A stretch of 64,000 nucleotides of DNA from an uncultured Candidatus Bathyarchaeia archaeon (GCA_964608455.1 CAZSNM010000001.1:11030-75029); one strand, 5' to 3'; counted from the stretch's first letter, positions 35,778 to 42,050 are shown. Program-made: numbers and translations. Notes: generated by a model not told the origin, from the letters alone.

Positions 35778-36569
35778 ATGCATTTGAAATTCTCGATTTG
35801 GGTTTCCCCAAAATTAAGAAAAGCTTATCTTCAACTTTCAAAAAAATTAAAATCCTCTTATGCTGACTTAATTTTGCTTCCTTTTCCTAAACGTCTTACA
35901 ATATTTTTAAAAGATTTAATTAATGGAGCCCCGTATGATCTATTTCTTAAAAAGATTGTTGAAGAAGAAAAAATTTTTTATTCAATTAACATATTTAACT
36001 ATTTTTATGAAGAAATTTTAAAGGTATGCAAGGAATTAAAGAAAATAAATCCAAAACTTGAGTTAAATTGTTATAAAGAAGATGAAAATATGCTTTTTCA
36101 AATTCAATCGGCTGTAAAATTTTCTATTTTAACTTTTAAAGCTGCTTCTACAAGTAAAATAAATTTAGATGAATGGCTTCATGTATTAACTGAAAATTTA
36201 AGGGAAACCAAAGAATATTTAGATAGAGAAACTGAATTCATAGAAAAGCAAGCTCAAAAATATGATAATATTATATGTTTAGCCAATTTTGAGGGGAAAT
36301 ATTATTTTCAACATTTAAAAAATAAGTTTCCTGTGGAAATTCAATATTTTGCTCTTCCATATCATTTTACTCCATTAGAAATTTTAACTACATTTTTAAA
36401 TCTTAAAAGGGAAATAGATGATGAAAAAATTATGCAGTTTATTAAATCTCACATAGATTACATTAGAAACTATGTTCTTACATGCGATAATTTAGATGAA
36501 GCCTATGAAAAATGGGTTAATGAAAATGTTAATTGGATTAATGCATGGAAAAAATTTAAAAATAATTGA
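35778..36569 (+). CDS. Hypothetical protein (263 aa) immediately upstream of the cdv cluster
   Basis: Intact ORF with no motif I recognise. The composition is that of a soluble, Lys/Glu-rich protein. Confidence 0.4.
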   Translation: MHLKFSIWVSPKLRKAYLQLSKKLKSSYADLILLPFPKRLTIFLKDLINGAPYDLFLKKIVEEEKIFYSINIFNYFYEEILKVCKELKKINPKLELNCYKEDENMLFQIQSAVKFSILTFKAASTSKINLDEWLHVLTENLRETKEYLDRETEFIEKQAQKYDNIICLANFEGKYYFQHLKNKFPVEIQYFALPYHFTPLEILTTFLNLKREIDDEKIMQFIKSHIDYIRNYVLTCDNLDEAYEKWVNENVNWINAWKKFKNN

Positions 36570-36805
36570 GTATCTGCTTTAAAAAATTATATGTCATAGC
36601 ATTTATAACTTTTATAATTTACATCATTTACATTTAAGCTTTTTATTTCTTTCAACAAAAAACAATTATCGTTTTATTAAGATTTAAATGTGAAAAATTT
36701 CATCTGTAACTTCTCCATTTTTTTACAAGTTCTTTAAACTAAACTTAATTTAAATTCTAAGTCGACAAGTTATCAACTCGAAGCGTTTTGGAGGTAAAAT
36801 AACGC

Positions 36806-37459
36806 TTGTCAAAAAGGATAATCAAAAGTTGGAATGGTTCAGACTCTATATTTACAAGATTTAGTGAGAAAATCCGCGGTAGAAAACCAACTCTTAAAGA
36901 AAAAGTTTCTCAAGCCATTTATCGATTAAAAGTTCAAAGAACTAAGCTGGAAAATGCTGCTGCTAGAATAGAAAATCATGATAAATCTTTATTTGAAAAA
37001 ATTGTTAAAGCTCAAATGGCTAAAGACTCTGCTAGAGCCATAATGTATGCTAATGAATGCGTGGAATTAAGAAAAATTGCAAAAACAACTTTACGTTGTC
37101 AATTAGCTCTTGAAAAAGTTCTTTTAAGGCTTGAGACAATTAAAGATTTTGGTGATGTTGCATCGCTTATGGCGCCTGTAGTAGATGTTGTTCAAGCAAT
37201 AAAAACTGAAATTTCAGGTATTATGCCTGAAGTAGCTTTTGAACTTGGTGAAGTTGGAGAAGTGTTAGGGGACGTTGTAACTGAAATGGGTGAAGCTGCT
37301 GGAATAGGCGAGGAGGACCTTCATCCATCAAGTGAAGCTATGAAAATAATTGAGGAAGCTAACGCTGTAGCTGAGCAAAAAATGAAGGAAAAATTCCCAG
37401 AATTACCTTTACAAGTTGCACCAAATCTAGAGGAATCTTCAGCTACAAAATTAAAGTAG
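36806..37459 (+). CDS. ESCRT-III (Snf7/CdvB-family) paralog
   Basis: Conserved ESCRT-III core shared with the two other paralogs (SQAIYRL...YANEC(A/V)E(I/L)RKIAK...QLALEKV). The C-terminus has a KFPELP proline motif (MIM2-like). TTG start behind GGAGGT. Confidence 0.8.
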   Translation: MSKRIIKSWNGSDSIFTRFSEKIRGRKPTLKEKVSQAIYRLKVQRTKLENAAARIENHDKSLFEKIVKAQMAKDSARAIMYANECVELRKIAKTTLRCQLALEKVLLRLETIKDFGDVASLMAPVVDVVQAIKTEISGIMPEVAFELGEVGEVLGDVVTEMGEAAGIGEEDLHPSSEAMKIIEEANAVAEQKMKEKFPELPLQVAPNLEESSATKLK

Positions 37460-37470
37460 AGGTTAAAAAA

Positions 37471-38145
37471 TTGAATATTGAAGAAGCCAAAAATAATATT
37501 GGAAAAGAAGTTTTTGACTCTAGAGGAAGAAAAATTGGTAGATTAATATCTTTTTGCACAGACCTTAGGGGGAACCCTATTAAATTCTTAATAGAGCTTG
37601 TTACTGGTGACTTCATTCAATGTACTGTTGAGCAGCTTCAGCAAAAGGAAAACGTTTTAACTTATCTTTATTCATGGGAAGTTAATGCTAATAACTTAAA
37701 GAATAGATTTGATTTAGTTTCAAGAAGAATTAAAGCTTTAGAAGAGCTTTATGCCAATGGTGAAATAGAAAAAGAAATTTATTTAGAGCTTAAAAACAGG
37801 CATGAAAGCTCTTTGGAAGAATTAGAGGAGCAAAGAAAACTTTTAATAGATAAACTTTATGAAAGAAAAACCAAACTGGATCTTAAAATAAAAGCTTTGG
37901 AACTTTTCTTAGCTAATAGCAAAATGCAGCAATCTTCAGGAGAAATTAGTGGGGAAGCCTTTAAAGTAGCTCTAGAATCAATAAATATTGGATTGAAAAG
38001 AGCAATCTCAGAAAGAAATTATATTAAAGAAATGGTTGACTTCTTAAGCAATGTTAAAATTTCAAGCGTTACTTCCTTAAAAACTCCAGGTTTAAAGCCT
38101 CTAACTGAAGATGTTGTTTTAGTTAAGTTAAAAGAACCAACTTAA
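37471..38145 (+). CDS. cdvA: CdvA-like protein (PRC-barrel + coiled coil)
   Basis: The N-terminus NIGKEVFDSRGRKIGRLISF is PRC-barrel-like and is followed by a long heptad-rich region. The gene is positioned directly upstream of the wH-containing ESCRT-III and Vps4, as in cdvABC operons. TTG start. Confidence 0.65.
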   Translation: MNIEEAKNNIGKEVFDSRGRKIGRLISFCTDLRGNPIKFLIELVTGDFIQCTVEQLQQKENVLTYLYSWEVNANNLKNRFDLVSRRIKALEELYANGEIEKEIYLELKNRHESSLEELEEQRKLLIDKLYERKTKLDLKIKALELFLANSKMQQSSGEISGEAFKVALESINIGLKRAISERNYIKEMVDFLSNVKISSVTSLKTPGLKPLTEDVVLVKLKEPT

Positions 38146-38160
38146 AAGGAGGATTAAACT

Positions 38161-38937
38161 ATTTCAATAATTCGAAAAATAAGCAGTAAATTTAAACCTA
38201 CACCATTAAAAGAAAAGATTTCCCAAGCGATTTATAGGCTTGATGCTCAAAAAGAAAAGCTTGAACAAATGAGTTTTCTTCTTCAACAAAGAGATAGGGA
38301 AATGTTTCAAAAATGTATTGAAGCTCAATTTGCTAGAGATATTCCAAGAGCTAGAATTTATGCTAATGAATGTGCTGAAATAAGAAAAATTGCTAGAATA
38401 GTATTAAGCAGTCAATTAGCTTTAGAAAGAGTTATTTTAAGGCTTCAAACAATCGAGCAGTTTGGAGAAGTTCTTACTCAAATAGCACCTGTAATAGATG
38501 TGGTTGAGGAAATGAAAGATAAAGTATCAGGCTTAATTCCTGAAGTTGCTAATGAACTTGATCAAGTAAATTCAATGCTTAGAGATATGAGTTTAGAAGC
38601 TGGAGAAATCGAATCTGAAAATATAGATGTTGAAGCAGCTAATGAGGAAGCTAAAAAAATAATGTTGGAATCCATGGCTATTGCTGAAGAAAAAATGAAA
38701 GAAACATTTCCAGATATTAAAGATTTACAAATGAGTAAAATGAGGGTCATTCCAATTTCTGAAGGGGGAGAAGATTTAAAAAGAATGAATCTTGAAGAAC
38801 TTGTTTTAGAATATATTAAAAGCAACAATGGTTACTTAAGCATTTCTAAATGCGCTTCAACATTAGGTGTTTCACCAAAAAAAATTAAGGAAACTGTAGA
38901 GAAATTAAAAAACAATGGGAAAATAATTTTTGAGTAA
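38161..38937 (+). CDS. cdvB: CdvB (ESCRT-III with C-terminal winged-helix domain). The N-terminus is probably extended upstream of the ATG at 38269 used by the ORF track.
   Basis: ESCRT-III core plus a C-terminal wH-like segment, LEELVLEYIKSNNGYLSISKCASTLGVSPKKIKETVEKLKNNGKIIFE. In-frame sequence upstream of the ATG (ISIIRKISSKFKPTPLKEKISQAIYRL) aligns with the N-termini of both paralogs. AGGAGGA lies 8 nt before an ATT codon at 38161. Confidence 0.7.
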   Translation: MSIIRKISSKFKPTPLKEKISQAIYRLDAQKEKLEQMSFLLQQRDREMFQKCIEAQFARDIPRARIYANECAEIRKIARIVLSSQLALERVILRLQTIEQFGEVLTQIAPVIDVVEEMKDKVSGLIPEVANELDQVNSMLRDMSLEAGEIESENIDVEAANEEAKKIMLESMAIAEEKMKETFPDIKDLQMSKMRVIPISEGGEDLKRMNLEELVLEYIKSNNGYLSISKCASTLGVSPKKIKETVEKLKNNGKIIFE

Positions 38938-38939
38938 AG

Positions 38940-40085
38940 GTGATTTATAAAATGGTTTTATCTGCTTCTGAAGAGCTTGAGAAAATGGCTGCTAAATATG
39001 CTAATGAAGCAATTCAATTAGATGGGCAAGGTTCAAAAGGAATGGCTATTTCACGCTATCAAAGAGCTATAGAAATTCTTTTAAAATTAACCTCTTTATA
39101 CCCTGACTCTCCCCAAACCAAAGTTTACTTAACTAGGATAGAAGCCTATCAAAAAAGGATTAAAGAATTAAGGGAATCACCAGTTTCTTTAGGAAGTCAA
39201 AGTTTTGAAGCAGCAACATTTAATCAACTTGTTATTTCTGAAAAACCTAATGTTAAATGGAGTGATATAGCAGATTTAGAGGAGGCTAAAAAAGCGATAG
39301 AGGAATCTATTATTTTCCCAGTTAAAAGACCTGATTTATTTCCTTTAGGTTGGCCAAGAGGCATCCTCTTTTTTGGTCCGCCTGGATGCGGAAAAACATT
39401 GCTTGCAGCTGCTGTAGCTACAGAAATAGATGCAGCATTTTATTGTGTTGACTCTGCCTCAATAATGTCTAAGTGGCTTGGAGAATCAGAGAAAAATGTA
39501 GCACAGCTTTTTGCTGAAGCACGAAATAAAGCCTCCTCCGGTCAACCAGCAATAATATTTCTTGATGAAATAGATTCTTTAATTGGTAAAAGAAGCAATG
39601 AAATTGGTGGAGAAATTAGAACTAGGAACCAGTTTTTAAAGGAGATGGATGGACTTCTAGATAAAAAGAAAAATCTTCATGTTTATGTAATTGGGGCAAC
39701 AAATAAACCTTGGGCTTTAGATGATGCATTTATAAGAAGATTTCAAAAAAGAATTTACATTCCCCTTCCAGATTATAATGCTAGACTTGAACTCTTTAAA
39801 ATTTATACAAGAGAAATTAAGCTTTCTCCAGAAGTTGACCTTAAATATCTAGCTAAAATTACAGAAGGTTATTCAGGAAGCGATATTAGAGATATTATTC
39901 AAGCAGCTCAGTTAGAAGTTGTTAGAGAATTTTTTGAAAAAGGAAATCCCAATGATAAACACGCTCTTCCAAAACCTGTAAGCATGGGAAATTTTATTAA
40001 TGCTTTAAGAAAAAGAAAACCAAGTGTCTCCTTTAATTTAACCAAAAATTATCTTTCTTGGTTTGAGGTTTATGGAGCAATATGA
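38940..40085 (+). CDS. cdvC: Vps4-like AAA+ ATPase (CdvC). The true start is possibly the ATG at 38952.
   Basis: N-terminal MIT domain (EELEKMAAKYANEAIQLD...AIEILLKL). Walker A GPPGCGKTLLA and Walker B IIFLDEIDS. Confidence 0.92.
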   Translation: MIYKMVLSASEELEKMAAKYANEAIQLDGQGSKGMAISRYQRAIEILLKLTSLYPDSPQTKVYLTRIEAYQKRIKELRESPVSLGSQSFEAATFNQLVISEKPNVKWSDIADLEEAKKAIEESIIFPVKRPDLFPLGWPRGILFFGPPGCGKTLLAAAVATEIDAAFYCVDSASIMSKWLGESEKNVAQLFAEARNKASSGQPAIIFLDEIDSLIGKRSNEIGGEIRTRNQFLKEMDGLLDKKKNLHVYVIGATNKPWALDDAFIRRFQKRIYIPLPDYNARLELFKIYTREIKLSPEVDLKYLAKITEGYSGSDIRDIIQAAQLEVVREFFEKGNPNDKHALPKPVSMGNFINALRKRKPSVSFNLTKNYLSWFEVYGAI

Positions 40086-40708
40086 AAAGAGGAGGGTTAA
40101 AATTGTTTAAAGAAAGAAAATCTTTTACGGAAAAATTAAGAGAATCCATTCATCCCACACCTTTAAGAAAAAAAATTTCTTTAACGTTAACCTCATTAAA
40201 AATTCAATTGAAAAGATTGGAGAATGCAGCTTATAGACTTGAGCAAAGAGATAAAATTCTTTATGGAAAATGTGTTTCAGCCTTGCAAAAAGGTGATAAA
40301 TATTTAGCTTCTCTTTACGCTAATGAATGTGCTGAAATAAGAAAAATTGCTAAAATAACTTTAACAAGTCAATTAGCTTTAGAAAAAGTAACTTTAAAAC
40401 TTGAAACAATAAGAGACTTTGGTGATATAGCTTACTCAATGAATTCAGTTACATCTATAATTGGAATGTTAAAAGATGGATTAAGAAACTTAATGCCTGA
40501 CATTTCTATGAAACTTGATGAAGTAAATGAAGATTTGCAAAGTTTAGTTATTGAAATGGGAGAAACAACTGATCAAGGGATAGATTTGGAAAGTGCAAGT
40601 GAAGATTCTAGAAAAATAATTGAAGAAGCAACCATTGTAGCTGAGCAAAAAATGAAGGAAAAATTCCCAGAGCTGCCTGTAATAGCAGCAAAAGAAACAA
40701 AAATTTGA
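40082..40708 (+). CDS. ESCRT-III (Snf7/CdvB-family) paralog
   Basis: Same conserved core as the other paralogs. The C-terminus AEQKMKEKFPELP is identical to that of the 36806 paralog. The start overlaps the Vps4 stop. Confidence 0.8.
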   Translation: MKRGGLKLFKERKSFTEKLRESIHPTPLRKKISLTLTSLKIQLKRLENAAYRLEQRDKILYGKCVSALQKGDKYLASLYANECAEIRKIAKITLTSQLALEKVTLKLETIRDFGDIAYSMNSVTSIIGMLKDGLRNLMPDISMKLDEVNEDLQSLVIEMGETTDQGIDLESASEDSRKIIEEATIVAEQKMKEKFPELPVIAAKETKI

Positions 40709-42050
40709 ACCTTAATGCTTTTCCCTATTTTTGTATAAACTCCTAAGGTTTTTTGAATTTTAAATTCCTCAAATTCTTTATTCTGTTTAGCATCATCATT
40801 AAAAAGTAATAATTTTCCATAAACTCCATCATGACCGCTAACATATTTTATTTCATTATTTCTTATCTTTAATATAACCTCAACTATTCGCTCATTTGTA
40901 ACTTTAATTAACTCATCTTTTGAAGCATTCAATAAAACATTTATTTCATTTTTAAATTTTTTAATTAAGCTCCAATATTCGCTCCATACTGTTTGCGAAT
41001 AAACAATTTAACTTATATACTTTAGCTATTATCTCCATTAAAGGAATAAGATGCTTAAATGGAATATACTCTTTTGGAATAAAACTTTCAGGTCTATCTG
41101 CAAGCTCTTCAACTCTTTGTAAAACACCAATAGTTAATTTTCTTCTGCATTTTGGACAAATATTATTAACTTTTATAGCTTCCTTCGGGTGAAAGCTAAC
41201 ATTGCATTTTCTATGGCCTGAAAAATGATATTTACCTGCTTCCGGAAAAATTTCCCCGGTCATAACAAGTTTTGATTTATCCTTATTTTTTATAGCTTCA
41301 TAAATTTCTTTAAATGAAATTTTATTAACTTTAAAACTGTAAATTCCCTTCCTAATCTTAAAGGGTTGGATGTATGAGAATCTGAAAAAGATACAAGCGT
41401 ATATTTATCAAGCTTACTTATTCTAAAAGCCATTGAAGGATCGCTTGAAAGGCCTGTTTCAAGAGCATAAATATGTTTTGATTTTTCTTGAAAACATTCC
41501 TCAATACTATTAAAACCTGATTTGAAACCTAAAACTCCAAACCATGGTGTAAAATAATGAGCTGGAATTATCAAAATATTTTTTGAAATGCTCATTAAAA
41601 TTTCTACAAATTCCATGCAATTCATTTCATTAAAGGTTGGTCATCCATCAGCTTTTAAATCACCAAACATTTCAAGTTTTTCATTAATTTGATCTACTAT
41701 CTCAAAGTTTTCAGCTAAAATTAAATTATGAACCCTTCTAATTACTCCATTAAATTTATAAATAATTGCATACTTCTGCGGAGAGAATAAATAAACTTCT
41801 CTCCCCCTCTAGTTTTAAAAATTCCTTCCCCATCAACTTCAAAGAGATTAGCTTTTAATTCTTTTAACCATTTTGGATGAGTAAAATCACCAGTTCCAAG
41901 CATATTAATTCCTTTTAATTTAGCATTTTCCTCTAAAATTATTAATTGTAATGTCTTTGCTTGCTGCACGACTAAGAGGAGAGTGAATATGAAGATCAGA
42001 ATAAATTAAACTCAATTCTTCATCAAACCAATTGAACCGCTAAAATTTAA
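40709..42050 (-). pseudogene. Disrupted endonuclease Q-like PHP-domain nuclease gene (frameshifted into at least 4 reading-frame pieces)
   Basis: Minus-strand translation gives ...YSDLHIHSPLSRAASKDIT in one frame, then LEENAKLKGINMLGTGDFTHPKW in another. Further pieces follow: IPAHYFTPWFGV...SDSHT, then a zinc-finger piece NICPKCRRKLTIGVLQRVEEL, then ...SGHDGVYGKLLLF. Together these resemble EndoQ-type proteins broken by frameshifts. No canonical start codon precedes DLHIHS. Confidence 0.5.

Follow-up and report, generated by a model that had tools for sequence, protein, structure and literature searches.

Which components make up the Cdv machinery of Bathyarchaeia, and where does translation of its winged-helix CdvB begin, if the reading frame offers no canonical start codon ahead of its conserved N-terminus? 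Both questions arise from a locus in a thermophilic, low-GC (30%) Bathyarchaeia archaeon, lying within a 64,000-nt stretch of DNA that we refer to as the window. We conclude that positions 36806–40708 very probably constitute a five-gene Cdv operon in which the gene for the winged-helix CdvB, cdvB(wH), starts at ATT 38161 and would be translated by weak initiation coupled to cdvA.

Gene content and order of the locus

All six open reading frames lie on the plus strand (Table 1), and the Cdv genes are where the earlier note had placed them, with corrections at several start codons. The cdv genes run in the order ESCRT-III (CdvB1/B2-like), cdvA, cdvB with a winged helix, cdvC/Vps4 and ESCRT-III, with intergenic spacers of 11–17 nt and one Shine–Dalgarno site per cistron; as an operon, the five encode a predicted Cdv membrane-scission machinery. 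Ahead of them, the blocks conserved with relatives of 73% identity (alignment with L081 and L083) include TTTTTTTACAAGTTCTTTAAACTAAACTTAATTTAAA and a GGAGGT Shine–Dalgarno motif at about 36790. Scans of the whole window for tRNA genes and Rfam families gave no matches.

Table 1. Positions of the cdv genes and associated features in the window
Feature	Position	Strand	Remarks
263-aa gene upstream of cdv	35778..36569	+	No matches in profile searches
Putative operon promoter and 5' UTR	36570..36805	+	AT-rich intergenic sequence; promoter role putative
ESCRT-III paralogue without winged helix (B_up), CdvB1/B2-like	36806..37459	+	TTG start; FPELP near the C-terminus
CdvA	37471..38145	+	N-terminal PRC barrel (about residues 10–65), long coiled-coil hairpin, disordered tail
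Shine–Dalgarno GGAGG of cdvB(wH)	38148..38152	+	Right after the cdvA stop, 8 nt before ATT 38161
CdvB with C-terminal winged helix, 258 aa	38161..38937	+	Non-canonical ATT start
CdvC/Vps4 AAA+ ATPase (MIT, AAA, lid, Vps4_C)	38952..40085	+	Open frame from GTG 38940
Second ESCRT-III paralogue without winged helix (B_dn)	40103..40708	+	NF041005, E = 8e-54; FPELP

The proposal that all classes of Cdv component are co-located here was upheld for every assignment by HMM, solved-structure and fold tests, with profile matches to Snf7/CdvB1/B2, CdvA, CdvB and CdvC. B_up matched Pfam Snf7 (E = 2.4e-6) and the NCBIfam CdvB1/B2 profile NF041005 (9e-64). CdvC matched Pfam MIT (7e-8), AAA (5e-38), AAA_lid_3 (1.6e-10) and Vps4_C (1.4e-3), and aligned to NF041006 over positions 2–369 of 370 (6e-159). 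Solved structures of CdvB2 and CdvB could be aligned with the ESCRT-III proteins: CdvB(wH), which gave no match to the Pfam Snf7 model at E ≤ 1, matched NF041008 (1.7e-44, residues 12–258 of 258), CdvB2 (PDB 9s97, 1.6e-40, residues 3–189), CdvB (9s9j, 3e-27) and, at its C-terminus, the CdvB winged helix (2xvc, 0.0036, residues 210–257). It comprises an amphipathic helix, (M)SIIRKISSKF, the ESCRT-III core, a degenerate MIM2 motif (FPDIK) and a winged helix at about residues 205–258.

The CdvA call, made earlier from a PRC-barrel-like segment followed by coiled coil, also held. The protein matched PF18822 (1e-17), NF041007 (9e-19) and PDB 9s9g (2.9e-11, residues 8–200), and its AF2 model (pLDDT 84.8) matched S. 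islandicus CdvA in Foldseek (9s9i; E = 1.9e-13, TM 0.73/0.82). The Pfam PRC profile alone was sub-threshold (E = 0.021), while the modelled N-terminal domain matched the PRC barrels of the RC-H subunit, MTH1859 and CdpB in Foldseek. The tail, disordered in the monomer model, ends in the conserved strand-like EDVVLVKLKEPT; a hydrophobic strand-like tail of this kind closes every CdvA, as DVVLVKLKE in the window and PPVVVYVKE in the main clade, and is a candidate for the E3B peptide with which CdvA binds the CdvB winged helix. All of the window's Cdv proteins are family members without equivalog status under NCBI thresholds: NCBIfam scores were below the cut-offs for CdvA (67.8 against 350), CdvB(wH) (152.5 against 370), CdvC (528.8 against 650) and the two short ESCRT-III proteins (214.8 and 182.2 against 350), and these proteins share only about 20–40% sequence identity with their solved Sulfolobus counterparts.

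Two further starts were revised. ATG 38952 is suggested as the start of cdvC, rather than GTG 38940, because it is preceded by GGTGAT and 7 nt and because orthologues have N-termini of the form M-(x)-SASEELE. B_dn likely starts at TTG 40103, 7 nt after GGAGG 40091–40095, and not at ATG 40082, the alternative that overlaps the stop of cdvC; its orthologues in L081–L085 are called as 201 aa.

The earlier reading that all three ESCRT-III proteins end in MIM2-type motifs stands for the two short ones, which carry KFPELP near the C-terminus; in the 258-aa CdvB, the proposed ETFPDIKD has no second proline and is located in the linker preceding the winged helix. Among orthologues, the φPxφP motif is present in 75 of 75 upstream and 31 of 31 downstream proteins, while the winged-helix CdvB has only FPDIK in the window's clade and LPEPP in the main clade. 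In the ESCRT-III tree, the three paralogues form positionally stable orthologous groups, B_up and its positional orthologues among them, and the B_dn group is restricted to the window's half of the class.

CdvABC has been described in Bathyarchaeia before (PMC10936438, PMC9723716). Since 71 of the 86 Bathyarchaeia loci in the comparison, the window's among them, have the order ESCRT-III–cdvA–cdvB(wH)–cdvC, the layout seen here is, by synteny, ordinary for the class, an outcome for which the earlier note had allowed. Contig ends interrupt most of the other 15 loci.

The conserved-looking 263-aa neighbour (likely start TTG 35784) is scarcely credible as a sixth, lineage-specific Cdv component, and we rejected it as a Cdv partner: it is directly upstream on the same strand, an arrangement kept in relatives of 97% and 73% identity, but only the small clade to which the window belongs has it beside cdv, and its fold is EreA/ChaN/TraB-like.

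The start of cdvB(wH) in the window

The earlier note placed the start of cdvB(wH) at 38161 without noticing that the codon there is ATT, and not ATG, GTG or TTG. An in-frame TAA (38155–38157) is followed by ACT and then ATT, 15 nt past the cdvA stop; from the TAA to codon 37 the frame contains no ATG, GTG or TTG, and codon 37, at 38269, is its first ATG, where a mechanical ORF call starts. The GGAGG motif and its spacing are repeated in L081–L085 and in the main Bathyarchaeia clade, the GGAGG-to-AUG distance in archaeal aEF1A mRNA is identical (PMC6237735), and one more relative of 73% identity retains ATT at this position. No report of a non-canonical cdvB start was found in the limited collection of literature searched.

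It could be argued that the real start is ATG 38269, giving a protein of 222 aa, and that the in-frame similarity upstream is non-coding or vestigial; this is the earliest canonical start of the frame, and the database entries of the closest relatives are 222-aa and 211-aa versions. We regard this as very improbable. ATG 38269 is not preceded by a Shine–Dalgarno site, and the 36 codons ahead of it, which include SIIRKISSKFKPTPLK, are by their substitution pattern clearly coding, with 8 synonymous changes and 1 non-synonymous change between the window and L083. They align to residues 19–55 of the solved S. acidocaldarius CdvB2, that is, to the N-terminal helices amph2 and amph3 and the first half of helix α1, and the first 11 residues have a hydrophobic moment of 0.63, against 0.33 for shuffled sequences. 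Such ESCRT-III N-terminal amphipathic helices are needed for liposome binding, and translation from Met37 would yield a protein missing both the helix that binds the membrane and one half of the α1–α2 hairpin (PMC12818579). In 34 species, moreover, codon periodicity sets in at the AUH codon. Judged on these features, ATT 38161 is the only plausible start of the gene, and cdvB(wH) of the window almost certainly begins at AUU.

A CdvA–CdvB fusion by read-through or frameshifting was also considered and excluded, because the cdvA–cdvB spacers of the window and L083 differ by a 1-nt indel, which shifts the relative frame of the two genes; the frame relation varies among species, the cdvA stop is always ahead of the motif, and no slippery site is conserved in the spacer.

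Start codons across Bathyarchaeia

A canonical start before the conserved block is absent from 47 of 80 cdvB(wH) genes, as against none of 73 cdvA and none of 71 upstream ESCRT-III genes (0/144 neighbours; Fisher p = 5e-27), where the 80 loci are the best cdvC matches rather than a random sample and species counts are not phylogenetically independent. Anchored on the Shine–Dalgarno motif, the cdvB(wH) starts comprise ATC (30), ATT (10), ATA (6), CTG (9), TTG (5), GTG (5) and ATG (1). In 34 main-clade species the start codon is A-T-N, with position 2 invariant and position 3 free, and three-base periodicity sets in exactly at this codon. Three species have ATG, GTG or TTG at the same position, although Ile, Met, Val and Leu interchange conservatively, so that such variants alone are no proof of a start. 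The gene thus combines the lack of a canonical start, a conserved AUH or CUG codon at proper Shine–Dalgarno spacing, and coding sequence directly after it.

The trait is frequent and not universal, since many relatives at 50–57% identity use canonical cdvB(wH) starts. A general relaxation of start-codon use in Bathyarchaeia was largely rejected: outside the cdv genes, at most 5 GGAGG-led candidate starts are near-cognate against 26 canonical, and within the window the figures are 1 and 17. One soil clade (the ‘CTG clade’) shows more, with ATC, ATT, ATA or CTG also on cdvC and CTG on the neighbouring Lrp-type gene, which weakens the case for an effect specific to cdvB.

The evidence is evenly balanced on whether, throughout the class, CdvB(wH), the presumed template or adaptor among the ESCRT-III proteins, is translated from a conserved near-cognate codon (in two clades AUC, AUU or AUA, in another CUG, each behind a perfect GGAGG shortly past the cdvA stop) that would couple its synthesis to that of CdvA at a low ratio. 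The codon could instead be a genuine start devoid of regulatory meaning, if re-initiation coupled to cdvA tolerates any A/C-U-N and the codon simply drifts. In keeping with this, the cdvA stop is 12–48 nt upstream in every near-cognate case, the cdvA TAG of one clade overlaps the Shine–Dalgarno motif 13 nt from the CTG, and canonical and near-cognate cdvB starts interchange among relatives. We nevertheless consider it unlikely: the packing is just as tight at cdvA, cdvC and the upstream ESCRT-III gene, yet almost all species have canonical starts there, and drift alone would lead one to expect neither the retention of a perfect GGAGG at 8 nt nor the preference for ATC over other Ile codons (ATC accounts for 71% of ATH codons at the start position but for 29% of the ordinary Ile codons of these genes).

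A main-clade mRNA hairpin, in which the Shine–Dalgarno GGAGGG would pair with the CCCUCC of Pro-Pro codons 24–29 nt downstream, was left unproven. Single-sequence folds of main-clade relatives predict it, but RNAalifold gave only −1.68 kcal/mol and no covariation was found; 80.9% of the cells pair, as do 231 of 500 shuffles. The hairpin is absent from the window's clade (MFE −2.8 kcal/mol).

Predicted mechanism and comparison with known systems

By homology with Sulfolobus, the PRC barrel and coiled coil would mediate the polymerization of CdvA, whose C-terminal tail would recruit the winged-helix CdvB. The latter may bind the membrane by its N-terminal amphipathic helix and template the two winged-helix-less paralogues, which carry the full FPELP motif and would be remodelled by way of the MIT domain of CdvC/Vps4. 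Near-cognate initiation is expected to be weak and probably dependent on ribosomes that have just completed cdvA. This could make CdvB(wH) the scarce component, although CdvA, Vps4 and the remaining ESCRT-III proteins are encoded on the same mRNA.

The Sulfolobus/Saccharolobus operon has the same cdvA-cdvB-cdvC order, with cdvB1, cdvB2 and cdvB3 unlinked. The proteins are likewise similar: CdvA has a PRC barrel and coiled coil, CdvB an ESCRT-III core and winged helix, Vps4 an MIT domain, and the winged-helix-less paralogues have MIM2 motifs and N-terminal amphipathic helices. Unlike that system, the window's operon holds two winged-helix-less paralogues, one ahead of cdvA and the other behind cdvC, and its CdvB has a degenerate MIM2 motif and an AUU start. 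Given this resemblance, a locus devoted to vesicle budding or other membrane remodelling, rather than cytokinesis, is decidedly unlikely: Sulfolobales ESCRT systems do also produce extracellular vesicles (PMC10936438), and Bathyarchaeia have no culture for cell biology, but the set and order of components (CdvA, CdvB-wH and Vps4) are those of the Sulfolobales division operon, and Bathyarchaeia are listed among the lineages that have the complete CdvABC set (PMC9723716). Division and vesicle roles of a Cdv locus are mutually compatible.

In Nitrososphaeria (Thaumarchaeota) the cdv genes are scattered; those of the window form one operon. The two share CdvA, several ESCRT-III paralogues and Vps4, but the CdvB of the window has a winged helix and Nitrososphaeria lack a CdvB protein with one (PMC10936438). 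Other Bathyarchaeia, whose Cdv locus was noted by Makarova et al. (2024; PMC10936438), share the core order and, in most cases, a near-cognate cdvB start, and in the window's half of the class they have the same three orthologous ESCRT-III groups. Relatives, unlike the window, have cdvC followed by an Lrp/AsnC-type regulator, to which an ABC transporter pair is added in some cases, and carry a second CdvA paralogue after the third ESCRT-III gene; the window's clade has none of these here, and its last ESCRT-III gene therefore abuts cdvC.

A parallel for the start itself is the E. coli gene infC, encoding IF3, in which a conserved AUU start with a good Shine–Dalgarno sequence sets a low, factor-sensitive rate of translation. 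By its sequence, the window's cdvB(wH) has the same combination of start codon and Shine–Dalgarno site, which would act in a similar way. Whereas infC is bacterial and autoregulatory through IF3, cdvB(wH) encodes a structural division protein, with no feedback implied, and the discriminating factor at the archaeal start would be aIF1 (PMC6237735) rather than IF3.

As a normal Cdv operon of its class, the locus alone adds little, although it shows cleanly which three ESCRT-III paralogues accompany CdvA and Vps4 in Bathyarchaeia. Wider consequences follow from where cdvB(wH) starts. In many cases, public CdvB(wH) entries of Bathyarchaeia are truncated. Those of the window's clade are missing 36 residues, among them the amphipathic helix on which membrane binding depends in Sulfolobus, and structural or biochemical work on these entries would therefore use a defective protein. 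If the class-wide reading is true, public CdvB(wH) annotations are systematically truncated at the N-terminus and lack the membrane-binding helix. If confirmed, it would represent conserved archaeal near-cognate initiation on a cell-division gene, and it offers a testable idea of how ESCRT-III stoichiometry may be set within a single mRNA.

The cdv operon and its neighbours

Six plus-strand open reading frames lie within positions 35778–40708 of the window (G+C about 30%), which an earlier note, made from sequence alone, had read as a cell-division (cdv) locus. Profile searches against Pfam and NCBIfam bore out its Cdv gene calls (see table); the finding is real and the Cdv interpretation right. 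None of the Cdv proteins reaches the curated NCBIfam equivalog cut-offs, and they are family members distant from the Sulfolobales proteins behind the models.

Genes of the cdv region, with profile matches and Shine–Dalgarno-led starts
Gene	Position	Strand	Match	Start
263-aa gene	35778–36569	+	no Pfam or NCBIfam family	GGTGA + 6 nt + TTG 35784 (likely)
upstream ESCRT-III	36806–37459	+	NCBIfam CdvB1/B2 9e-64; Pfam Snf7 barely over threshold	GGAGGT + 10 nt + TTG 36806
cdvA	37471–38145	+	PF18822 1e-17; NF041007 9e-19, across residues 7–206	GAGGT + 7 nt + TTG 37471
cdvB(wH)	38161–38937	+	CdvB model end to end, 1.7e-44, residues 12–258, including C-terminal winged-helix part	GGAGG + 8 nt + ATT 38161
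cdvC	38940–40085	+	Vps4-type ATPase: MIT, AAA, lid, Vps4_C; NF041006 6e-159	GGTGAT + 7 nt + ATG 38952 (probable)
downstream ESCRT-III	40082–40708	+	second CdvB1/B2-like protein, 8e-54	GGAGG + 7 nt + TTG 40103 (probable)
EndoQ-like PHP-domain gene	40709–42010	−	Pfam MJ0043_C	

The solved S. islandicus CdvA 9s9g aligned to residues 8–200 of the window CdvA (2.9e-11). The AlphaFold model of the window protein (pLDDT 84.8) combines an N-terminal barrel of six strands with three long helices and a disordered tail. Foldseek matched the model to CdvA 9s9i/9s9g (E 1.9e-13, TM 0.73/0.82), and its N-terminal domain to the PRC barrels of the reaction-centre H subunit, MTH1859 and CdpB1/2; the guess of a PRC barrel plus coiled coil was therefore correct. 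The 258-aa winged-helix CdvB, CdvB(wH), aligned over residues 3–189 with the solved CdvB2 9s97 (1.6e-40), with the solved CdvB 9s9j (3e-27) and, over its last 50 residues, with the CdvB winged helix 2xvc (0.0036).

With CdvC as the query, a scan that took a single genome for each GTDB species yielded 80 loci as its best matches, nearly all labelled Bathyarchaeia or Bathyarchaeota (57–67% identity). When the window proteins were mapped onto the loci, the order ESCRT-III–cdvA–cdvB(wH)–cdvC was found in 71 of 86, the window counted, most of the others being broken by contig ends. Gene order including flanking genes is identical in the near-identical contigs L081 and L082 and in hot-spring MAGs L083–L085 (73% identity). 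Published work had already recorded CdvABC in Bathyarchaeia; it also notes that most TACK genomes carry additional ESCRT-III genes lacking the winged helix, and that ‘Bathyarchaea’ have extra CdvA-like proteins (PMC10936438; PMC9723716). Thus the layout was correctly described but is ordinary, as the earlier note had allowed should close relatives share it: operons of this known kind are the rule in the class. In an approximate neighbour-joining distance tree, 190 ESCRT-III cores cluster by position (upstream, winged-helix, downstream) and not by genome, which points to three old paralogues that have kept their positions.

Loci with the downstream paralogue are confined to the half of the class to which the window belongs. 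In relatives there (L001, L005, L007, L012, L019 and others) the locus extends further: cdvC is followed by an Lrp/AsnC-type HTH regulator, in some cases with an ABC permease–ATPase pair behind it, and the third ESCRT-III gene comes next, ahead of a second CdvA paralogue (~200 aa) and a convergent EndoQ-like gene. Neither the regulator nor the second cdvA is matched by any gene in the 64-kb window; both were lost from this position in its clade, and the operon looks unusually compact because of that loss. Six small indels, several within short A/T runs, split the window's EndoQ-like gene across four or more frames, with neighbouring genes intact; it is whole in L081 (a 97%-related contig, 429 aa) and L007 (431 aa), and the window copy is either a pseudogene or locally poor assembly. 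Scans of the whole window for tRNA genes and, at gathering threshold, for Rfam families gave no hit.

The 263-aa gene, which the earlier note had called conserved-looking, did not hold up as a Cdv partner. We treat it as an unrelated neighbour, since no family member lies within ±8 kb of cdvC in any of the 80 other Bathyarchaeia loci, and between it and the operon there is a 236-bp AT-rich gap with blocks kept in close relatives. The protein has only seven close homologue clusters, its wider family numbers 139 in a profile search of 1.8 billion representatives, and unrelated genes surround a 42%-identity homologue. This uncharacterised family has no Pfam model and a predicted EreA/ChaN/TraB-like fold.

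The start of cdvB(wH)

The five cdv genes are separated by 11–17 nt, with a Shine–Dalgarno-like site at each. Its spacing from GGTGAT probably puts the cdvC start at 38952 rather than 38940, in keeping with orthologue N-termini reading M-x-SASEELE; the downstream ESCRT-III start proposed here matches the calls in L081–L085.

In cdvB(wH) no canonical start (ATG, GTG, TTG) precedes 36 open codons, and the mechanical reading frame begins at ATG 38269. An in-frame TAA (38155–38157) closes this stretch two codons before the ATT. Between the window and L083 nine of the 36 codons differ, eight synonymously; they align to residues 19–55 of the solved CdvB2, a region that includes the short amphipathic helices ‘amph2’ and ‘amph3’ along with the beginning of helix α1; once such helices are deleted, Sulfolobus CdvB, CdvB1 and CdvB2 no longer bind liposomes (PMC12818579). 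Together these observations show that the 36 codons are coding. The predicted N-terminus, (M)SIIRKISSKF, is amphipathic (hydrophobic moment 0.63 vs 0.33 in shuffles). Read-through or frameshifting from cdvA is ruled out by a 1-nt spacer indel between the window and L083 that shifts the relative frame. The 8 nt from GGAGG to the ATT equal the spacing in the strong natural aEF1A leader of Pyrococcus initiation studies (PMC6237735). Gene callers overlooked the ATT, and the nearest proteins in databases are 222 or 211 aa long; the literature searched contained no mention of a non-canonical cdvB(wH) start.

Judging from the orthologues, the missing canonical start is not confined to one genome. Of 80 cdvB(wH) orthologues, 47 offer no ATG, GTG or TTG in the stretch that runs from the preceding in-frame stop to the first conserved residues, against 0/73 for cdvA and 0/71 for the upstream ESCRT-III gene (Fisher p = 5e-27, loci treated as phylogenetically independent); many relatives at 50–57% identity nevertheless have ordinary starts. 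Shine–Dalgarno-anchored starts are ATC (30), ATT (10), ATA (6), CTG (9), TTG (5), GTG (5) and ATG (1). The leader of a 34-species main clade reads GCGGGCGGAGGGA-N6-7-AUH, independently of reading frame; its start codon opens with A in 32/34, always has T as the second base and varies freely at the third, and three-base periodicity sets in exactly there. A TAA lies between the Shine–Dalgarno site and the ATC in L036, and three species have ATG, GTG or TTG at the AUH position. At the start position 71% of ATH codons are ATC, compared with 29% of the Ile codons in the rest of these genes. The window's own clade has ATT (window, L081/L082 and L087, the last at 73% identity) or ATC (L083–L085, L005). 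Elsewhere in ~1.2 Mb of loci, GGAGG-led near-cognate candidates number at most 5 vs 26 canonical starts; in the window the tally is 1 vs 17.

A separate soil ‘CTG clade’ (L014, L016–L022, L024, L030, L034, L042) has GGAGG + 9 nt + CTG, the cdvA stop TAG overlapping the Shine–Dalgarno site, and its relatives have GTG or ATG in place of CTG. As a caveat, cdvC in this clade is likewise without a canonical start, having GGAGG + 8 nt + ATC/ATT/ATA, or CTG, and L034 has a CTG start on the Lrp/AsnC-type gene directly 3′ of cdvC; near-cognate initiation may be broader in this clade.

Candidate Vps4-binding motifs and the proposed output of cdvB(wH)

MIM2 motifs had been proposed for all three ESCRT-III proteins. 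This stands in full for the two winged-helix-less paralogues, where φPxφP, as FPELP or FPDLP, is present in all 75 upstream and all 31 downstream proteins, and in part for CdvB(wH), which has FPDIK in the window's clade and LPEPP in the main clade. All CdvA proteins compared share a conserved C-terminal segment that is hydrophobic and strand-like (DVVLVKLKE in the window), likely a counterpart of the E3B peptide. In the main clade LPEPP is shared by CdvA, before the terminal strand (…ELPEPPVVVYVKE), and CdvB(wH), after helix α5 (…KLPEPPAT), which suggests that CdvA, too, may contact Vps4 in MIM2-like fashion there. By extension from Sulfolobus (PMC12818579 and references therein), CdvA filaments would recruit CdvB via its winged helix, CdvB would template the constricting paralogues, and Vps4 would engage the MIM2 motifs.

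The main clade also offers a candidate Shine–Dalgarno-sequestering hairpin. In alignment A1 (34 loci, −19 to +32 around the start), the Shine–Dalgarno region GGCGGAGGG is complementary to CCCUCCACC of Pro-Pro-Pro codons 24–32 nt downstream; the first two Pro codons vary unusually little at their third positions (entropy 0.43 and 0.38), and single-sequence folds pair the two segments. No covariation was found across the 34 loci, so the hairpin is unproven; it is absent from the window's clade.

What the analysis adds is a conserved non-canonical start for cdvB(wH) and, with it, a corrected gene model. Since aIF1 disfavours non-canonical codons (PMC6237735), initiation at the near-cognate codon would be weak, partly offset by the strong Shine–Dalgarno site and probably supplied by ribosomes terminating on cdvA, 12–48 nt upstream. 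Such weak, cdvA-fed initiation would set a fixed, low CdvB(wH):CdvA ratio.
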